Both the position numbers and the translations under genes were made by a program. Below, one piece after another: positions 2,214 to 10,792 of a stretch of 64,000 nucleotides of DNA. The notes beneath the pieces are model-generated. The model was not told the DNA's origin, did no database searches, and saw only the letters and a list, made by a program, of their open reading frames with translations. Position 1 is the first letter of the stretch, and every line of letters starts with the position of its first letter. The DNA comes from a virus, in the IMG/VR virus record IMGVR_UViG_3300046167_000924, positions 120,079-184,078 of that record. One strand, 5' to 3'.

Positions 2214-3029
2214 ATGGCAGAAGCAACAATAGAAACACAAACAATGGATGATACTCGCAAAAAGCTGCGAGAAATTTATAGCTTTACTTTTGAGAAAACA
2301 GAAAAAGTAAAAAGAACCGAAACGAATACAGTCAAGAACGAAGAGACTGGTGAATCAGAGGAAATCACTGTAACAAAAGAAGTTTCTGAAGCTATTCCTT
2401 ATAGGGTTGTAATGAAGCAACCTACGCGCCGCCAAATCGAAGAAGCAGAGCTTGAGTTTAGCGTTGAAATGAGTAATTGTATTAAGAAGGGAATTCTAAC
2501 AAAAGCAATGCTCGCAAAAAAATATAGCGACACAGGTGGACTTCTTGCTGAAGAAGACGCAAAGGCTTTAACAAAAATGTATGTAAACTACGGCGAACTT
2601 TCTCAAGAGAGCGAAAAAATTCAAATCAAAAGCGTTCAAACTGAAAAAGATGAAGCTCGTCTCAAAGAAATTTCTGGCGAGATTGCTATTTTAAGAAAAG
2701 ATATTGTTAATGTTGAAACATCATATTCTAATTTATTTAATCATACTGCTGATGTACGAGCTGAGAATAAAGTTATTCAATGGTATATATTGCATCTTAC
2801 TTTTATACAGAAAGACGCCGAAGATGATTTGGATCCATTGTTTGAAGGAAATGATTTTGAGCAAAAGCTGCAAACATATTATGATCTAGAAGAACAGGGT
2901 AGTGACTTGTATGATTTGGTTGGCGGAAAAATTGCAGCACTATTTAGTTTCTGGTATTACAGTTCTGGCGCAGTATCAACCGCTGACTTCGAAAAGCTTG
3001 ACAACGACATCGAAGAAGGTAATGTTTAA
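2214..3029 (+). CDS. Putative tail assembly chaperone-like protein
   Basis: 271-aa acidic helical ORF upstream of the tape measure. Function from synteny only. Confidence 0.4.
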   Translation: MAEATIETQTMDDTRKKLREIYSFTFEKTEKVKRTETNTVKNEETGESEEITVTKEVSEAIPYRVVMKQPTRRQIEEAELEFSVEMSNCIKKGILTKAMLAKKYSDTGGLLAEEDAKALTKMYVNYGELSQESEKIQIKSVQTEKDEARLKEISGEIAILRKDIVNVETSYSNLFNHTADVRAENKVIQWYILHLTFIQKDAEDDLDPLFEGNDFEQKLQTYYDLEEQGSDLYDLVGGKIAALFSFWYYSSGAVSTADFEKLDNDIEEGNV

Positions 3030-3034
3030 TATGC

Positions 3035-4021
3035 GTGGAAACTGTCAAGCGCAGAAAGATATTTAGAGATATAGTTCGTGGTTATTCAACCACAACACTA
3101 GAAGAGGATTTTGTATATATCAAACATCTAACTCCTCATGATCAAGTAGAACTTGAGGAGATCGAAGAAAAGTATCATAATATAGCACTTCGCAGGGGTG
3201 TGCCCACCGAAGAAGATATGCTGGTGTTCCTAAAAGAGGAAGATCAGTGGAAAGATTCTGACGATAAATTTATTGAAGATAAAACATATTTTCTTGAGAC
3301 TTTAAAAACTGCAAAAACTAAAATGGTTCTTAAGCGCCAGATAGATAAGCAGGATGAATTGATTCTTGAGGAAACAATAGCTTTACATAAAAAACAAAAC
3401 GAAAAAGCCTCGCTCTTGGGTAACACTTGTGAGAAATATGCACGCGATAGATTAAATGATTTTTATATGATTCGCAGTTTTTATGAAGATAAAGATTTAA
3501 CCACCCCTCTATTTGATGAGCAGAAATTTGATGAACTCGAAAATCATGATATTAAAAAAGTTGTTCTTCGATACAATGAATTATTCGAAGCATTTAATGA
3601 AGAAAATGTACAATATACTATATTAGAAGAATTTTATAATCCATATCTTAGTTTTGCTGAAGATAGTATGCAGTTTTATGGAAAACCATTTTGTAATTTA
3701 ACATATAATCAAATAAGATTAATTGTATATACTAGAGTATTTAAAAATATATTTGACTCAAATGAAAATATACCAGATAATATAAGAAAAGATCCCGCGA
3801 AATTGTTAGAGTTTGGCAGTAGCTCAAGAGAGGAGAGGGACAAGGCGAAAGATAAATTATCAAAAGGTGATGCAAGTACATTGGTTGGTGCAAAAGATGA
3901 AGATTATGAATACCTTGGAATACAAAAACCGCAGGGTGGAAAAGATCTAGACGAAGAGACTAGAAAAAAAGGTGGTAAGTTAAATATGCAAGATTTAATG
4001 AAATTGCATGGCGTAGGATAA
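3035..4021 (+). CDS. Putative tail assembly chaperone-like protein
   Basis: 328-aa helical ORF with GTG start, immediately before the tape measure. Function from synteny only. Confidence 0.4.
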   Translation: METVKRRKIFRDIVRGYSTTTLEEDFVYIKHLTPHDQVELEEIEEKYHNIALRRGVPTEEDMLVFLKEEDQWKDSDDKFIEDKTYFLETLKTAKTKMVLKRQIDKQDELILEETIALHKKQNEKASLLGNTCEKYARDRLNDFYMIRSFYEDKDLTTPLFDEQKFDELENHDIKKVVLRYNELFEAFNEENVQYTILEEFYNPYLSFAEDSMQFYGKPFCNLTYNQIRLIVYTRVFKNIFDSNENIPDNIRKDPAKLLEFGSSSREERDKAKDKLSKGDASTLVGAKDEDYEYLGIQKPQGGKDLDEETRKKGGKLNMQDLMKLHGVG

Positions 4022-4060: not shown

Positions 4061-7000
4061 ATGGCTATAAATCTTAACGTACAAGGTAATACACAACCTC
4101 TTGAGGCTGCGGTTCAGGCTGCAGTAAACAGAATACGTAAAACGCCTATAAAAATAACTGTTGACGACAAGGGTGCCACTCAACCCCTCGGAAACATGAA
4201 GCGCGGTGCCGACGAATTTAGTAAGTCAATGGAGGCTGCTAATGCTCGTATTATAGCTTTCGGAGCTAGTATGGCAATTATCAATGGAGTTTCTGATGCT
4301 TTCAAGGCAATGGTTAAAAATGTTGTTGAAGTTGAAAAAGCTTTAGCAGATATTAATGTTGTTATGGGTTTGTCTGCGACCAACTTAGACAAATTCTCTT
4401 CTGGTTTATTTAAGGTCGCAAAAGAAACTGCTGCAAGCTTTGATGTGGCTGCCGCCGCCGCAACAGAATATGCTCGTCAAGGTTTAAAAGTAGAAGAGAC
4501 TTTAAAAAGAACAAAAGACGCTTTAATCCTGACTCGATTAACAGGTATGGATTCTGCAAATGCTGTTAAAGCTTTAACTGCAGCAATGAATACATACGGA
4601 GATCAAATAAAAGATACCACTCAACTGGTAAGTAAATTTGCTGCGGTTGACGTTCAGTTTGCGGTTAGTGCAGAAGACTTTGCTGATGCAATATCTCGTA
4701 CTGGTCAGGCTGCAAAAAGTGCTGGAGTAGATATTGACGAATTGGTTGGTTTGGTCACCGCAGCTCAACAGCAAACTGCTAGAGGTGGTAAGGTAATCGG
4801 AAACTCATTTAAAACAATTTTCACAAGAATTGGTAGAACTGATACTTTAAATCAATTAGAAAATTTGGGAATAGCTGTTCGTGATGTAGAAGGTAGAACG
4901 CTAGGAGCAAAAAGAATTTTAACTGACCTTGCAAATACTTTTGATCATTTGAGCGAAGCTCAAAAAGCACAAATCGCACAAACCGTTGGTGGGGTTTTTC
5001 AGATCAACGTGCTTAAAGCTGTTTTAAGTGACGCCGCGAAACAAAATGGTATTCTTGCTAATGCAACGCAAATTTCTGCTGGAGCAACTGATGAAGCAAT
5101 AACGAAAAACGAACAATTGCGGCAAACTATGGCTGCTATGGCCAGCGAAACAGGTTTAGCTTTAAAAGAAGTTAGTGCTCAAATTGGTGAAATTATGCTT
5201 GCTCCAGGAATGGAGAAGATTTTAAATATAGTAAAAAGCATGACCGAAGGTGTTGGAGATATGCTTGGAACTGGAGAGGGTGCAGGAAATACATTTGCAA
5301 AAGGATTTTTAAAAGGTTTGGGTAATATTATAACTGGCCCAGGTTTGGTTGTGATGGTCGCGGTTTTTACTAAGTTATTGATTAAAGCTGTTCAATATGC
5401 TAGAGACAGTTTAAAATCATTGATCGGTGTTACAAGCGAAGCTCAAAAACAAAAAGCTATTCAAACTTCTTTGGTTACATTGTTTGGCCAGAACGCTGCG
5501 CTAAATAAAGAAATGCTTCGCACCGACATAAGCCGAACCGAAAAAGAAAAAATAATTTTAAGTTTGCTTAAGGCTCAGGTTATGGAGGCTAACGCTTTAA
5601 ATAGCCTGACAAAACAAATGTCTACAACTTTGTATTCAAAAGGTTATGGAGCTAATTTAGCTCCAAGGCGAGGTAAAGCTGGTGGTCATATTCCAAATTT
5701 TGCAGATCCAGAAAGACAGCAAGCTGCGCGAGGTGGATATGCTGCTGGAAGTATTCGCAGTATGAATATGCCTGGCGAAGGCTCGGTAATATATAACAGC
5801 GCAGAAAAAGTAAAGAATTTTAAGGGCATGACTCAGCCCGCTATAATGCCTCCTCATTCAAGCAAGGCTGGAAAAAATTATCAACAAGCATTTGGTAGTA
5901 TACATGGATTTGATCCATATGCTGCAAGAGGATATATACCAAATTTTGCATCTGCGCAAGAAATTGGCAGTAAAAACGCAAAAAAAGCGGGTAAAGTTTT
6001 AAATTCAGATGGAGGTATCATTCTATTAACCGCAAATTATCCCGGTAAAGATTTGACCTCTCCAACATTTTGGGTTAGGGATGCGGCCAAAGGCGAAGCT
6101 GGAGCTGGAACTAGGGTTCATCAAAATGTCGGAACCATGCAAACATCTTTAAAAAATAAAACTTTCTCTGGAAAAAAACTTACAGCAAAAGGCAGAAAGC
6201 CAGGCGGCGCAGCAATCGATGCCTCAGGAGTCACAATGAGACAAGTTAAAGTTCCAACTTACTCATTAGATAAAAGTGATTCAAAAATTAATCTCCCTAA
6301 AAATAAAGATTTTCAAAAATATTCATATGACAAATTAAAGAGGTATGGTAAAAATCTGACAATAGATATGGTTAATAGATTAATGCCTGGTCAGAAAATA
6401 AGCAATTTCAAAGGAAACAAAAACGCAATAGAAGATAATGATGTTGCTGTCATGGGGGGTAGGATTTTTGAAAAAGTTTTAGAAGCAATTACCCAAGAAA
6501 TAGAGGGCTTATCTGGGGGGCACAAAGGCGCTTTGTTGGATGTGCCTGCTAACCCAAAACTATTTGAAGTTTTTGGGGCAAAATTACCTGCCGGAAAAAT
6601 TGGGGCTGAGGCTAAAATTAGTAGTGATACAACACATATGAAAAGTGCTGCTAGGAAAATATTTGATGTTTTAAGCGGCACTAAGGAGGCTGATATTTTA
6701 TCAAAGGCTTTTCCCAGCAAAAAAACTTTTTCAAAAACTTCAGATATTAAAAATAAGGCTTACGGTCATATCCCCAACTTTGCCGATCCACTATCAGACG
6801 CAATAGGTAGAGAAAAAGAAGCTGGCGTTCCTGTCTCTCAAATTCGTGTCGGTTCTCATCCAGCATTAATGAATAAAAGTAACCCAATTGGTCTCGGCGT
6901 AACCAACACACAAGATGAACCAAATGGACTGCGCGATGTATTTGGCGCCGCTAATGGATTTGTGCCGAATTATGTTAACCCATTCGGTTTTGTTAAAGAT

Positions 7001-10000
7001 AAAATTGTGCAAACTAATTTTGCTAAACAAATGACTTTGGGCGCAAGTAATTTAGAAGATTTTAATAAAAAACTAAAAAAACACAAACAAGAACAACAAA
7101 AACATTCTACAGCGGTTAGCAGAATAGAAAAACAACTTCAAAGGAATTTACTTTCTCAAAAAGAAGTAGATCGATTAAATAAACAGTTAGCGACCGCAAA
7201 AAAACACGAAGCCGCAGCTTCTAGGAGAATTACGTCCACTACAAGGGGGACAGGGGTCGGAGGATTTCTTGGTAGGTCAAGCGCCCGCATGGGTGGAGCG
7301 TTCAGTGGCAATTCAGGCATGATGATGATGATGGGAGCTCCTATGGCGGCAGGGTTTCTTCAACAAGGGGGAATGGGTGCACAGGGCGGAAATCAAGGTA
7401 TGTACGCTGCAGGCGGAGCTTTAAGTGGTGCCGCTTCCGGGGCTATGATGGCGAGCATGATCGCCCCAATGTTCGGGCCTGCAGCGCCATTGGTTATTGG
7501 TGTTGGCGGATTAATTGGAGCTGTGCAGGGCATGAAATCCGCAAACGAAGAAAACACAAAAGCCCTAAAAGAGCAGGCCGATGCGAGATTAAATGCTCAA
7601 ACTCAATCCGCTATGCAGGGCTTTGCAAACATAACTCAGGCAAAGGAATTATCTCAAAAAATAGGATCCACAAGCGCAAAAAGTAGTGATTTGCAAAATA
7701 TTGGGCTCACCACAGGAGCTTCTGTATTAGAAGGTTTTTCTAAAATATCTAATATTTTTAAAGGGGCAGCGGAGGCTCCGACTTTCAGCAGCCTAACGAA
7801 AAAACAGAAAGAATCTTTGTCTCCAGAAGTTCAGGCCTATATGGAGAGTGTATCTCGTGGGGATTTGGGGTCTAGATATTATACAGAATCACAAATAAAA
7901 GCAGACGATCCTAATGTTGTAAGTAAGCTTGGGTATTTTAAAGATGATGTTGGGGTTGCAAAATCTAGAAAATATCAGTCCGAGACTAAGGAGATCGTAG
8001 GATTTGGCAAACAAAAAGTTGCGTCTGCCAAAAACATTCAGGGTTCTTTGATTGATTATTTAATGAAAAATGAGAAATCTAAACTTTTTAGTTTTGATTT
8101 CGGTAAACAGGATGGAGCTGCAGCAAACACAGTAATAGAGAACCTAACAAAAGAAGAGTATGCAAAAGTTTTAAAAGGTCAAGAAGTAAGAGGCGGCTTG
8201 CGGGCTGACACAACTTTGATTCAACAAGAACTTGGTGATAAGTTGAAAAAAATCTATAATGATTATGAAGTAAAAGCGGGAGAACAGCGTGACGCTTTAA
8301 TCCTTCAACTAAACTTTCAGCGAGTGATGTTAAAGTCCCAAAAAGCTGCAGCGGACGCTCAGTTAGATATAAAAACTAAATATCTAAAACAATCTAATTT
8401 ATTAGATTCTCAAGAAAAAATGCTCGGCGGGCTAATGAGTGAAGAGCAAAAAGTTAGAATTCAATATAATAAAAATTTAACAAAAGCTTCTGAGGCTTAT
8501 GCTAGTGGAGCTGCCAAGGCAAAGTCTGATTTTTCTATGGGTCTGCTTCAAGATATTCAAGGGCAAGGTAAGGATAGCCTTAGATCTGCAATAAAGCAAG
8601 AGTTGTTTAAACGAATGAGTGATAGAGAGAAATCCGGAAAAGACGCAGGAGGTATTACAAATATTAAACTCTCTGAAAAATTAGCCGAAATGTCATCTAA
8701 GGAAAAAGAAGATCTTTTAACGAGCTTAAAAAGTCGAAATCCGGGAGTCGAAAACGAAATTAATGAAATACTAGGCAATAGACAATTAATATATGATAAC
8801 CAAATAAACACCCTAGGAAAACAAAAAACTCTTTCTGATGGTCAGAGCCTGTCTCAAAAAAATCTCAATGAAAAAATTGCTAAACAAAAAGACCTAATGG
8901 TTGATGTTAACAGGGAGATGCAGGATTACATTCGTGGTTTAGATAATGCCGCTCAATCCAGAGCGATAGCTTCTGAAATTACTGCTGCTAGATTTGGAGC
9001 CAGACCTCAAACTCAAGGTGCGATTTTCACAGAACAAGGAAGATTGACTGAAGAAAGAAAGAAAACTATCAGAACAGACTATGCAAAAAGTGCAACTTCT
9101 CAAATTAAAAAGCTTGCTGATGATATGGGGTTAACCGAAGAGCAAATAAAGCAGGTGATTCAAAAACCTAGCTTACTAAAAGGTATGCCTTCAAAACCTA
9201 TTAGCTCTATGGAAGAAGATCTGGGTAGTCTTCAGTTTTCAGCTTTTGCAGAAGAAAAGGGTAGCGATAAGCATAAATCACTTCTTGAGCAAATTGAAGA
9301 GCTCGAACAATCAATTGCTAGCGCAAAATCAGAAACAGCTAAAAAATCTGACCGTATAACAAAAATACTCCAAGGCGATCTTAAGATAACCAAGGAAAAA
9401 CTTTCAAAAGAAGATAAGTTGCTAGAAATAAGAAAAGACGAGTACACCCGAAGAACTGGCCCGGATGCTTTCGGGGAGGGCATCAAGGATGCTGGAATAG
9501 AAATGGAAAAGCGGGTCGCTATGATGGATTATGAATTAGCAAAGAATATACCTATGAAATTCGCAGACGGTCTCGCACAAGCAATGCAGGCAACATTAAA
9601 TCAAACCGAGAATCTTGGTGATGCATTAATGGGAATCGCATCAAATTTCTTGCAAGCAATTCAAAGCGCTCTTCTTCAAAAAGCCGCTTATCAAATTGTT
9701 GGTGGAGTGGGCGCCTCAACGGGGTTATTCTCAAAAGGCGGTGGTGTTAGAAATTATAGTCGAGGTGGAGGGGTGCCTGCTATGGTAACTAATGGAGAAT
9801 ATGTTATGAGTGGAGATGCTGTTTCTAAATACGGAGGAGCTTTTATGCATAGCTTAAATGCTGGAGGAAAAATTCCTGGATATGCAAATGGTGGTGCAGC
9901 TCCAGGATCAGCAATCGCAGAAAATTTTGGAGGAGGAAGAGGTTTCGCTTCTGGCCGAGCTTATCAATCCAAAGCTATGTCTTCATTCTTTTATACTCAA

Positions 10001-10792
10001 TCTCAAAATGTAGGACTTAAAGAAGATGAGCAGTCTTTAATGGGGGTATTGCGAGAAGAAGAAAGAAAGCGTCAAGAAGCCGCCGCAAAAAAAGCAAAGA
10101 AAAAACAATTTATTCAACAACTAATTGGTACAGCTTTAAGTGCGGGCCTTACAGCTGGTTTAACTAACGCTATTAAGGGTGGTGATTTAACCAAGTCTGC
10201 TATTTCAAAAGGTTATACTGATGCCGCCCCAAAAGGAGCTTTATCGGGATTTAATACTAAAACTGGTATGCGCGCGTCGTTTGCTCCAGGTTCTGAAATA
10301 GGGGGAAACTGGATAACTCAACCTGTTAGACAAAGCGCGTTTAGTAAATATAATCCGTTTAATTGGGGGATGAAGCCTCAGCAGGGGCCAGGTTTTGCAA
10401 GTGGGGGGCATGTCTCGGGAAAATCTGGAATCGATCAAATTCCTGCAATGTTGAGCGAAGGAGAATATGTAATCAAAGCAAGCAGCGCTCGTCAACTCGG
10501 CAAGCCAATGCTTGACCGAATAAACGCAGGTAAATATAATGATGGAGGAGCAGTCGGTTCAACTCAAATAGATTCTTCAACTTCAGCAGGAAACACGAAC
10601 AATATCAGCATTTCCATAAACATGGAAAATGGAAAAGTTAGCGCAGAAGAAAAAACTCAAGACACGAATCCTGCAACATCTCAAGAAGGATCTTCCGAAA
10701 AAGATCAATCTCTTCTTGCTGAAAAAATAAAACAACAAGTTGTTTCAGTTATCGTTGAAGAGCAACGTCCTGGAGGTCTTTTAAGTGAATAA
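4061..10792 (+). CDS. Tail tape measure protein (TP901-type N-terminal domain) with internal cassettes
   Basis: 2243 aa. N-terminal Ala-rich TMP domain (..AATEYARQG..DALILTRLTG..GKVIGNSFKTIFTRI..), Gly/Met/Ala hydrophobic segment, long coiled coils, and the C-terminal TMP motif FASGGHVSGKSGIDQIPAMLSEGEYVI (partly duplicated as YSRGGGVPAMVTNGEYVM). Confidence 0.93.
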   Translation: MAINLNVQGNTQPLEAAVQAAVNRIRKTPIKITVDDKGATQPLGNMKRGADEFSKSMEAANARIIAFGASMAIINGVSDAFKAMVKNVVEVEKALADINVVMGLSATNLDKFSSGLFKVAKETAASFDVAAAAATEYARQGLKVEETLKRTKDALILTRLTGMDSANAVKALTAAMNTYGDQIKDTTQLVSKFAAVDVQFAVSAEDFADAISRTGQAAKSAGVDIDELVGLVTAAQQQTARGGKVIGNSFKTIFTRIGRTDTLNQLENLGIAVRDVEGRTLGAKRILTDLANTFDHLSEAQKAQIAQTVGGVFQINVLKAVLSDAAKQNGILANATQISAGATDEAITKNEQLRQTMAAMASETGLALKEVSAQIGEIMLAPGMEKILNIVKSMTEGVGDMLGTGEGAGNTFAKGFLKGLGNIITGPGLVVMVAVFTKLLIKAVQYARDSLKSLIGVTSEAQKQKAIQTSLVTLFGQNAALNKEMLRTDISRTEKEKIILSLLKAQVMEANALNSLTKQMSTTLYSKGYGANLAPRRGKAGGHIPNFADPERQQAARGGYAAGSIRSMNMPGEGSVIYNSAEKVKNFKGMTQPAIMPPHSSKAGKNYQQAFGSIHGFDPYAARGYIPNFASAQEIGSKNAKKAGKVLNSDGGIILLTANYPGKDLTSPTFWVRDAAKGEAGAGTRVHQNVGTMQTSLKNKTFSGKKLTAKGRKPGGAAIDASGVTMRQVKVPTYSLDKSDSKINLPKNKDFQKYSYDKLKRYGKNLTIDMVNRLMPGQKISNFKGNKNAIEDNDVAVMGGRIFEKVLEAITQEIEGLSGGHKGALLDVPANPKLFEVFGAKLPAGKIGAEAKISSDTTHMKSAARKIFDVLSGTKEADILSKAFPSKKTFSKTSDIKNKAYGHIPNFADPLSDAIGREKEAGVPVSQIRVGSHPALMNKSNPIGLGVTNTQDEPNGLRDVFGAANGFVPNYVNPFGFVKDKIVQTNFAKQMTLGASNLEDFNKKLKKHKQEQQKHSTAVSRIEKQLQRNLLSQKEVDRLNKQLATAKKHEAAASRRITSTTRGTGVGGFLGRSSARMGGAFSGNSGMMMMMGAPMAAGFLQQGGMGAQGGNQGMYAAGGALSGAASGAMMASMIAPMFGPAAPLVIGVGGLIGAVQGMKSANEENTKALKEQADARLNAQTQSAMQGFANITQAKELSQKIGSTSAKSSDLQNIGLTTGASVLEGFSKISNIFKGAAEAPTFSSLTKKQKESLSPEVQAYMESVSRGDLGSRYYTESQIKADDPNVVSKLGYFKDDVGVAKSRKYQSETKEIVGFGKQKVASAKNIQGSLIDYLMKNEKSKLFSFDFGKQDGAAANTVIENLTKEEYAKVLKGQEVRGGLRADTTLIQQELGDKLKKIYNDYEVKAGEQRDALILQLNFQRVMLKSQKAAADAQLDIKTKYLKQSNLLDSQEKMLGGLMSEEQKVRIQYNKNLTKASEAYASGAAKAKSDFSMGLLQDIQGQGKDSLRSAIKQELFKRMSDREKSGKDAGGITNIKLSEKLAEMSSKEKEDLLTSLKSRNPGVENEINEILGNRQLIYDNQINTLGKQKTLSDGQSLSQKNLNEKIAKQKDLMVDVNREMQDYIRGLDNAAQSRAIASEITAARFGARPQTQGAIFTEQGRLTEERKKTIRTDYAKSATSQIKKLADDMGLTEEQIKQVIQKPSLLKGMPSKPISSMEEDLGSLQFSAFAEEKGSDKHKSLLEQIEELEQSIASAKSETAKKSDRITKILQGDLKITKEKLSKEDKLLEIRKDEYTRRTGPDAFGEGIKDAGIEMEKRVAMMDYELAKNIPMKFADGLAQAMQATLNQTENLGDALMGIASNFLQAIQSALLQKAAYQIVGGVGASTGLFSKGGGVRNYSRGGGVPAMVTNGEYVMSGDAVSKYGGAFMHSLNAGGKIPGYANGGAAPGSAIAENFGGGRGFASGRAYQSKAMSSFFYTQSQNVGLKEDEQSLMGVLREEERKRQEAAAKKAKKKQFIQQLIGTALSAGLTAGLTNAIKGGDLTKSAISKGYTDAAPKGALSGFNTKTGMRASFAPGSEIGGNWITQPVRQSAFSKYNPFNWGMKPQQGPGFASGGHVSGKSGIDQIPAMLSEGEYVIKASSARQLGKPMLDRINAGKYNDGGAVGSTQIDSSTSAGNTNNISISINMENGKVSAEEKTQDTNPATSQEGSSEKDQSLLAEKIKQQVVSVIVEEQRPGGLLSE

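Follow-up and report, generated by a model that had tools for sequence, protein, structure and literature searches.

The motif-bounded modules of a phage tape measure protein

The DNA analysed here, called the window, is a 64,000-nucleotide (nt) stretch of a viral record (IMG/VR IMGVR_UViG_3300046167_000924, positions 120,079 to 184,078). It contains a gene for a tape measure protein (TMP) of 2243 amino acids (aa), in which four copies of a short peptide motif, G[HYF][IV]PN[FY], bound three modules that we name s1, s2 and s3. The middle one, s2, is exchanged as a cassette among phages that are almost identical on either side of it, and its alleles keep a small set of near-invariant residues resembling an active site. 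The gene, its motifs and its modules are as follows.

4061..10792, + strand: TMP gene, one open reading frame (ORF) of 2243 aa, with PF10145 and PHROG TMP-family matches
5684..5704, + strand: boundary motif 1, GHIPNFA, aa 542-548; a pattern match, with G, P and N invariant in homologues
5684..5950, + strand: module s1, 82 aa from motif 1 to motif 2; 93% mean column identity, constant spacing
5930..5950, + strand: boundary motif 2, GYIPNFA, aa 624-630, bounding the variable cassette on the left; directly after it (nt 5950-5954, aa 631) the identity to near-identical phages drops sharply
5951..6763, + strand: module s2, the exchangeable cassette, aa 631-901 (271 aa); divergent in phages with near-identical flanks, about 43 allele clusters
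6764..6784, + strand: boundary motif 3, GHIPNFA, aa 902-908, bounding the variable cassette on the right; identity is back at nt 6749-6763
6764..6973, + strand: module s3, 64 aa from motif 3 to motif 4; 92% mean column identity, spacing 63-65 aa
6956..6973, + strand: boundary motif 4, GFVPNY, aa 966-971; followed by a second identity break at nt 6974-6979 in two relatives (loci L117 and L118)

The four repeats had been reported by a first-pass annotation made from the letters of the window, and they are indeed present at aa 542, 624, 902 and 966 (nt 5684, 5930, 6764 and 6956). The six-frame translation of the whole window contains no further match to the pattern, and only 4 of 20,000 shuffled TMP sequences have at least one. 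More than 120 metagenomic TMPs have the motifs at the same positions. In the 194 copies compared, Gly, Pro and Ala codons end in any of the four bases, which indicates that the motif is maintained as a peptide and not as a DNA site. The earlier suggestion that the motifs may be DNA recombination sites is therefore not supported; the crossovers seem to fall within s1 and s3 (see below). No paper found in our literature search mentions the motif.

The motifs are predicted by AlphaFold with low confidence and look like linkers. Together with the invariance of G, P and N and the selection at the peptide level, this is compatible with the idea that the array of modules is a self-processing polyprotein. 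The motif Asn would be the cleavage point (of the asparagine-lyase type, or the target of a virion protease), the acid/lysine site of s2 might be catalytic, and the s1 and s3 peptides would be released as the tail matures or at ejection. Self-cleavage after Asn (Asn-Ala, Asn-Phe) is how the capsid proteins of nodaviruses and tetraviruses release membrane-active peptides; TMPs are frequently fragmented in virions, and s1 and s3 are both short and 92-93% conserved. However, no similarity to known self-cleaving domains is seen, and a docking or turn function of the motif accounts for the same conservation, so that we hold self-processing to be very unlikely.

The division of the TMP into modules holds throughout the family. 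A search with aa 530-985 of the window TMP gave 566 TMPs, and the motif anatomy was established on the best 120. In these, motif 1 occupies aa 542-548 except where the start was called differently or the TMP is truncated; motif 2 follows with a spacing of 82 aa in 113 of 120 homologues, and the last two motifs are 63-65 aa apart in 121 homologues. The distance between motifs 2 and 3, i.e. the length of s2, ranges from 234 to 335 aa. Conservation per column is 93% for s1 and 92% for s3, which rank with the best-conserved parts of the whole TMP, versus 16-29% for s2. Three modules are found in 88 of the best 120 TMPs, four in 28 and five in 4, the additional motif-bounded modules being 93-100, 127-141 or 250 aa long. 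Measured against the window over 100 full-length TMPs, aa 1-630 reach 85-95% identity and aa 901-960 reach 86-89%, with a fall to 11-30% in aa 631-900 between them; beyond aa 960 the identity pattern is that of a mosaic.

Distant relatives, on viral or metagenome contigs, retain s1-like and s3-like modules and possess in addition modules of 111-119 and about 500 aa. Some individual cases from across the homologues can be mentioned. In one distant relative, an extra 111-aa motif-bounded module with a DGNHR motif (L096:2256-2606) gives weak matches to ParB_N (Pfam E = 0.0077, below the cutoff) and to PDB chains of the ParB family and SbnI (E about 1), and from its sequence may be ParB/sulfiredoxin-like. 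A motif-bounded module of 200 aa in a second distant relative (L078:3216-3833) contains HExxH (LAHESSHR) with a faint Peptidase_M78 match (E = 0.2) and may be metallopeptidase-like. In L094:122-1925 (equivalent, at the protein level, to aa 545-1143 of P0097/P0105), an s1-like module has grown, within a motif-bounded segment, by about 500 aa of low-complexity repeats with GSKNQ..PQERQ units. Finally, two boundary motifs are found only 10 aa apart in P0003 (aa 911-927, GHIPNFA ... GFIPNFA); this close pair may have been left behind when a module was lost or truncated.

Exchange of the s2 cassette

Five TMPs, P0009, P0011, P0012, P0014 and P0017, are near-identical to the window TMP outside s2, and the DNA of four of them (L117-L120, from four different samples) was fetched. 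At the protein level, aa 1-541 are 99.8-100% identical between the window and the five TMPs, s1 and s3 are 90-97% identical, and s2 is 22-24% identical. The mismatches begin at aa 631 and end at about aa 897-902, next to motifs 2 and 3. The same profile is seen in the DNA of L117-L120: 94-100% identity to the window in the upstream genes and from nt 4061 to about 5750, 82-92% in the remainder of s1, about 45% in s2 (from nt 5951-5954 to 6748-6763) and 80-96% in s3. In L117 and L118 identity breaks again directly after motif 4, at nt 6974-6979; in L119 and L120 it remains high through nt 7560, which means that there s2 alone was replaced. Far from being constant and collinear in all homologues, s2 thus varies in sequence and in length between conserved flanks, as the first-pass annotation had supposed, and it is swapped among near-identical phages with breaks at the motifs.

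Exchange is apparent at a larger scale as well. Among 4950 TMP pairs, N-terminal identity of at least 95% goes together with s2 identity below 40% in 229, and the converse pattern, with N-termini below 88% and s2 above 70%, is found in 29; in examples of the latter, s2 is at least 89% identical despite N-termini of 79-86%. Clustered at 50% identity, the 216 cassettes give about 43 allele groups, and the allele of the window is also found in TMPs with more distant N-termini. We considered that s2 had merely diverged in place, a possibility overturned for the lineage of the window by the near-identical phages with a different s2. The four-fold sites of the conserved N-terminus are near saturation when compared to loci L001-L022 (about 0.45 identity).

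The mildly lowered identity within s1 and s3 suggests that crossovers are located in these conserved modules. The alignments suggest, by the same token, that the sharp identity step at the motifs is the border between conserved and hypervariable sequence, the crossovers lying in s1 and s3. As judged from these comparisons, the cassette idea is more strongly supported than it was from the first reading of the sequence.

The nature of what is exchanged is another matter. It had been proposed that s2 is a slot for unrelated payloads, after the manner of polymorphic toxins, in which toxic tips are found behind a conserved peptide (CdiA-CT after the VENN motif, Rhs tips after PxxxxDPxGL). The resemblance lies in the short conserved peptide at the junction between carrier and recombining segment and in the many alleles circulating in the population. 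Unlike these toxins, all 216 cassettes belong to one domain family with the same signature and invariant residues (BLAST linkage and hidden Markov models, HMMs), s2 is internal and bounded on both sides, and the carrier is a virion protein. No immunity gene is adjacent: no immunity-like gene varies with the cassette, the neighbours of the TMP gene being tail genes that are 93-100% identical across phages with different s2. The analogy, on the available sequences, holds for the junction motif and for recombination only.

Other parts of the gene vary too. Window segments 7561-9460 and 10161-10460, both in the TMP gene, show 35-60% DNA identity to L117-L120, phages that are 94-100% identical elsewhere. 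These blocks are partly shared as a patchwork; L119, for instance, is 96-100% identical to the window at 8361-8960. From the pattern of identities the whole TMP is a recombination mosaic.

The s2 domain family and its predicted fold

The conserved part of s2 and the residues that define it are listed below.

6245..6676, + strand: conserved s2 core, aa 729-872; from alignments, invariant residues and an AlphaFold predicted local distance difference test (pLDDT) of about 90
6458..6472, + strand: G800-x-x-F803-E804, long helix; G in 232/234, F in 222/234 and E in 232/234 sequences, helix 169-192 of the model
6536..6544, + strand: L826-D827-V828, short strand; D in 234/234, covariation of V828 with A851
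6608..6616, + strand: E850-A851-K852, strand; E or D in 231/234, K in 232/234, strand 225-229 of the model
6656..6658, + strand: K866, in the helix that follows the (E/D)xK strand; K in 227/234

All s2 cassettes join into one BLAST family. A profile search with the core (aa 729-871) against 1.84 billion representative proteins gave 157 clusters, none annotated. Nearly all of them are long TMPs that have the domain around aa 700-900. Short matches carry boundary motifs, are broken or frameshifted gene calls or TMP fragments, or are too fragmentary to judge. The residues highlighted by the first-pass annotation had been placed correctly (E804 at nt 6470, D827 at nt 6539 and E850-A-K852 at nt 6608), and the order that it had read, E, D and ExK, is confirmed: far from being unconserved, E804, D827, (E/D)850-x-K852 and K866 are kept in 97-100% of 234 domain sequences. 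F838 is present in 227 of the 234. The signature can be written E804-x22-D827-x22-(E/D)850-x-K852, and K866 lies in the helix that comes next. The alleles of s2, as far as the alignments go, are therefore one TMP-specific domain family, diverged to 15-30% identity with eight residues kept.

Mean-field covariation analysis (226 sequences, effective number 135) brings these residues together. The strongest long-range pair, V828-A851, stands at 7.0 standard deviations and associates the residue after the Asp with the middle of (E/D)xK. Additional pairs (L826-G848, L825-D869, L826-I867, E850-A863, A796-I853 and L807-G839) complete a network that connects the D strand with the (E/D)xK strand and with both flanking helices. 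These pairs indicate that the invariant residues belong to one site.

AlphaFold run with 24 sequences gave too poor a model (pLDDT 56), and we relied on the one obtained with 55 non-redundant cassettes (mean pLDDT 72, predicted template modelling score 0.67, core about 90, five models alike). In this model, N-terminal strands are followed by two 24-residue helices, with E804 on the second, and then by a short strand with D827-V828, a short helix, the strand E850-K852 and the helix with K866. Foldseek (PDB, BFVD) and VIA-align (wide, with re-ranking) on two s2 models revealed no nuclease or other match. Searches of PDB chains (phmmer and profiles) with s2 and of PHROGs with the window cassette alone were equally negative, and the ESM Atlas provided no usable match. 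The s2 domain family is a candidate new fold.

The reading that we tentatively favour is that s2 is an exchangeable, enzyme-like module delivered with the TMP, probably catalytic on phosphodiester or phosphate groups. Several observations weigh against it. Neither the 24 nor the 55 alignment members match Pfam or NCBIfam, nuclease superfamilies included, and the profile search over 1.84 billion proteins brought no convincing standalone s2 homologue among its matches. The predicted connection between D827 and E850 is strand, short helix, strand, and not the hairpin of canonical restriction-endonuclease folds. A buried network of salt bridges would account equally well for two acidic and two basic invariant residues. 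The variable TMP blocks described above are as hypervariable between close relatives as s2 is, so that variability alone is no mark of an effector. The basic character noted from the start is real (pI 9.9, net charge +21 over 271 residues) and is weak evidence, because TMPs are generally basic; charge as a sign of DNA binding was discarded for this reason.

The first-pass annotation had been more specific and had called s2 a nuclease-like domain of the PD-(D/E)xK type, to which Hjc, T7 endonuclease I and EcoRI belong. Part of this claim stands: as in these enzymes, a Glu on a helix is followed by Asp between hydrophobic residues and by a (D/E)-x-K strand, and the D and (D/E)xK strands are adjacent by covariation. 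The fold itself is not supported. The restriction-endonuclease core has the order alpha-beta-beta-beta-alpha-beta, in which a strand is expected between the E helix and the D strand; in the predicted structure of s2 it is missing and a helix lies between the D and (E/D)xK strands, and the AlphaFold model, for all the quality of its core, has a non-canonical topology without profile or structural match (Foldseek, VIA-align and HMMs). 'Classical' PVDLV...LEVK-type motifs read by eye in the cassettes of the distant relatives L112, L109, L092 and L090 were dropped because hhalign gave them no support; they are possibly chance patterns in K/E/D-rich sequence. That s2 is a canonical effector of the restriction-endonuclease fold, injected against host or competitor DNA from a polymorphic-toxin-like slot, would suit the residue order and spacing, the neighbouring strands and the toxin-tip-like exchange at motif-delimited borders. 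The topology, the single family to which all alleles belong, and neighbouring genes that stay 93-100% identical with no covarying immunity-like gene when s2 differs, make it unlikely. The nuclease label is, at this stage, a plausible motif-level hypothesis that the fold search does not support.

An entirely different account of the same residues has to be taken seriously, and we give it somewhat less credit than the enzyme-like module. Here s2 would be a non-catalytic structural or host-contact module in which internal salt bridges among the invariant E, D, E/D and K hold a metastable fold together, and its exchange would reflect escape from defences or superinfection-exclusion proteins that recognise TMPs, or adaptation to partners in the host envelope. 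The balance of invariant acids and bases, the want of a fold or profile link to any enzyme and the equal hypervariability of other TMP blocks between near-identical phages all suit such a module, and TMPs are documented targets of defence. What it explains less well is the retention of eight residues in 97-100% of sequences when overall identity is 15-30%. The succession of helix acid, hydrophobic-D-hydrophobic and strand (E/D)-x-K is moreover more typical of an active site than of fold stabilisation, and the conserved glycine and aromatics around the acids suggest a shaped pocket.

The spacing E-x22-D also recalls a cell-wall hydrolase of the lysozyme type, in which a helix bears the catalytic Glu and the Asp comes about 20 residues later; muralytic motifs are known from other TMPs. 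The basic charge fits, a Pfam scan recognised no other muralytic domain in the window TMP, and there is a precedent in mycobacteriophage TM4 (PMC1796659). But no lysozyme-like structure or family was matched, abundant as these are in PDB and Pfam; E804 is in the middle of a 24-residue helix and not at its end, and two invariant lysines are unusual for glycosidases. A lysozyme-type s2 is thus highly improbable.

The setting of the gene and a possible role for s2

Two further features of the TMP frame the three modules.

4415..4993, + strand: TP901-type TMP core (PF10145), aa 119-311; Pfam match, E = 1.7e-28
7292..7531, + strand: Gly/Met-rich hydrophobic segment, aa 1078-1157; sequence reading, with a weak Gly-zipper Pfam match at the equivalent place in homologue P0030

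The PF10145 match reaches 100 bits versus a cutoff of 33, which makes the protein a member of the TP901 family, and several PHROG tape-measure families are matched as well. The public gene call (P0002, 2173 aa) begins 70 codons downstream of 4061; the latter is the likelier start because homologues keep the first 70 residues and have motif 1 at aa 542-548. Downstream of the TMP gene come minor tail, gpJ-like and fibre genes, and the gene encodes the TMP of an uncultured phage with a long non-contractile-type tail module. No isolate phage matched aa 514-1013 in 50,697 records, where the N-terminal core finds only about 25% identity, and a search of 185,579 species genomes gave no prophage copy of the region, so that metagenomes are the only known source of the family.

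The Gly/Met-rich segment is, from its composition, the probable membrane-inserting part of the TMP. Further on, the conserved C-terminal part contains two copies of an [IV]PAM[VL]xxGE[YF]V motif (window 9773-9805 and 10439-10471; aa 1905 and 2127); similar motifs are present near the C-termini of many TMPs. Upstream of the TMP gene, about 500 nt of the window (2761-3260) are missing in L117, which has a single 232-aa gene in place of ORFs of 271 aa and 328 aa. By comparison of the two sequences, an indel distinguishes them in what is putatively the region of the tail tube or chaperone genes.

Three motif-bounded modules lie between a conserved TP901-type N-terminal part and a hydrophobic and ruler part, and the s2 of about 270 aa is exchanged by recombination, the conserved coding DNA of s1 and s3 probably serving as homology arms; with such arms, the visible identity break falls exactly at the motifs. 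G800, F803, E804, D827, F838, E/D850, K852 and K866, on a helix, two neighbouring strands and the next helix, are predicted to pack as one polar site. If s2 is the enzyme-like module that we favour, the following scheme can be proposed. The candidate function is that of a metal-dependent nuclease-like enzyme or of a DNA-end-binding module. It would travel extended in the lumen of the tail and leave the virion with the TMP, positioned N-terminal of the membrane-inserting segment and nearest the DNA end. Phage 80alpha has a trimeric TMP, the C-termini of which are at the tip, whereas the N-termini lie beside the tail completion protein, facing the DNA end (bioRxiv 10.1101/2024.12.10.627806). By analogy, s2 (aa 631-901 of 2243) would be on the DNA-proximal side of the Gly/Met-rich segment. 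Host factors binding, sensing or inhibiting this region of the TMP would exert the pressure behind its allelic diversity. The data show the motifs, the arrangement in modules, the exchange of the cassette, the invariant residues and, through covariation, their proximity; catalysis, its substrate, delivery into the cell and the selective agent are what we infer in this scheme.

A bolder version combines several of these elements: the motifs would be processing sites that free the modules in maturation or ejection, s2 would be a new-fold metal-dependent nuclease or DNA-end-handling enzyme entering just ahead of the genome, and its alleles would be the product of an arms race with host inhibitors or sensors. 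We think this improbable; if true, it would amount to a polymorphic effector system built into the phage tail.

Embedded domains are not without example among TMPs. Pb2 of phage T5 is a TMP with an embedded functional motif. The TMP of mycobacteriophage TM4 carries a peptidoglycan-hydrolase motif (PMC1796659). Like both of them, the window TMP contains a non-ruler domain that would be carried in the tail lumen and act at infection; unlike them, the domain has an acid/lysine signature and is not of a muralytic family, its borders are repeated peptides and it is swapped between near-identical phages. A second comparison is with the Sle1-type effectors of actinobacterial contractile injection systems, which also have a TMP-like carrier and a modular, reconfigurable functional domain and are ejected from a tail-like machine (PMC13277306). 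Those effectors, however, are loaded into a bacterial injection system as its cargo and bear functional domains of various kinds at the C-terminus, whereas the window has a phage TMP as carrier and a cassette that is internal, motif-bounded and of a single family.

What emerges is a TMP family with a defined, motif-bounded slot, the content of which is replaced among almost identical phages while active-site-like residues are kept. TMPs are usually viewed as rulers, occasionally with a cell-wall hydrolase. If s2 is an enzyme, it would represent a new class of virion-delivered activity, exerted just as the DNA enters. Should it be a recognition surface instead, it would mark the part of the TMP that hosts target, which bears on the recently described defences that sense or exploit TMPs. 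In either case, the boundary motif and the s1 and s3 arms would constitute a natural design for module exchange in a tail protein.

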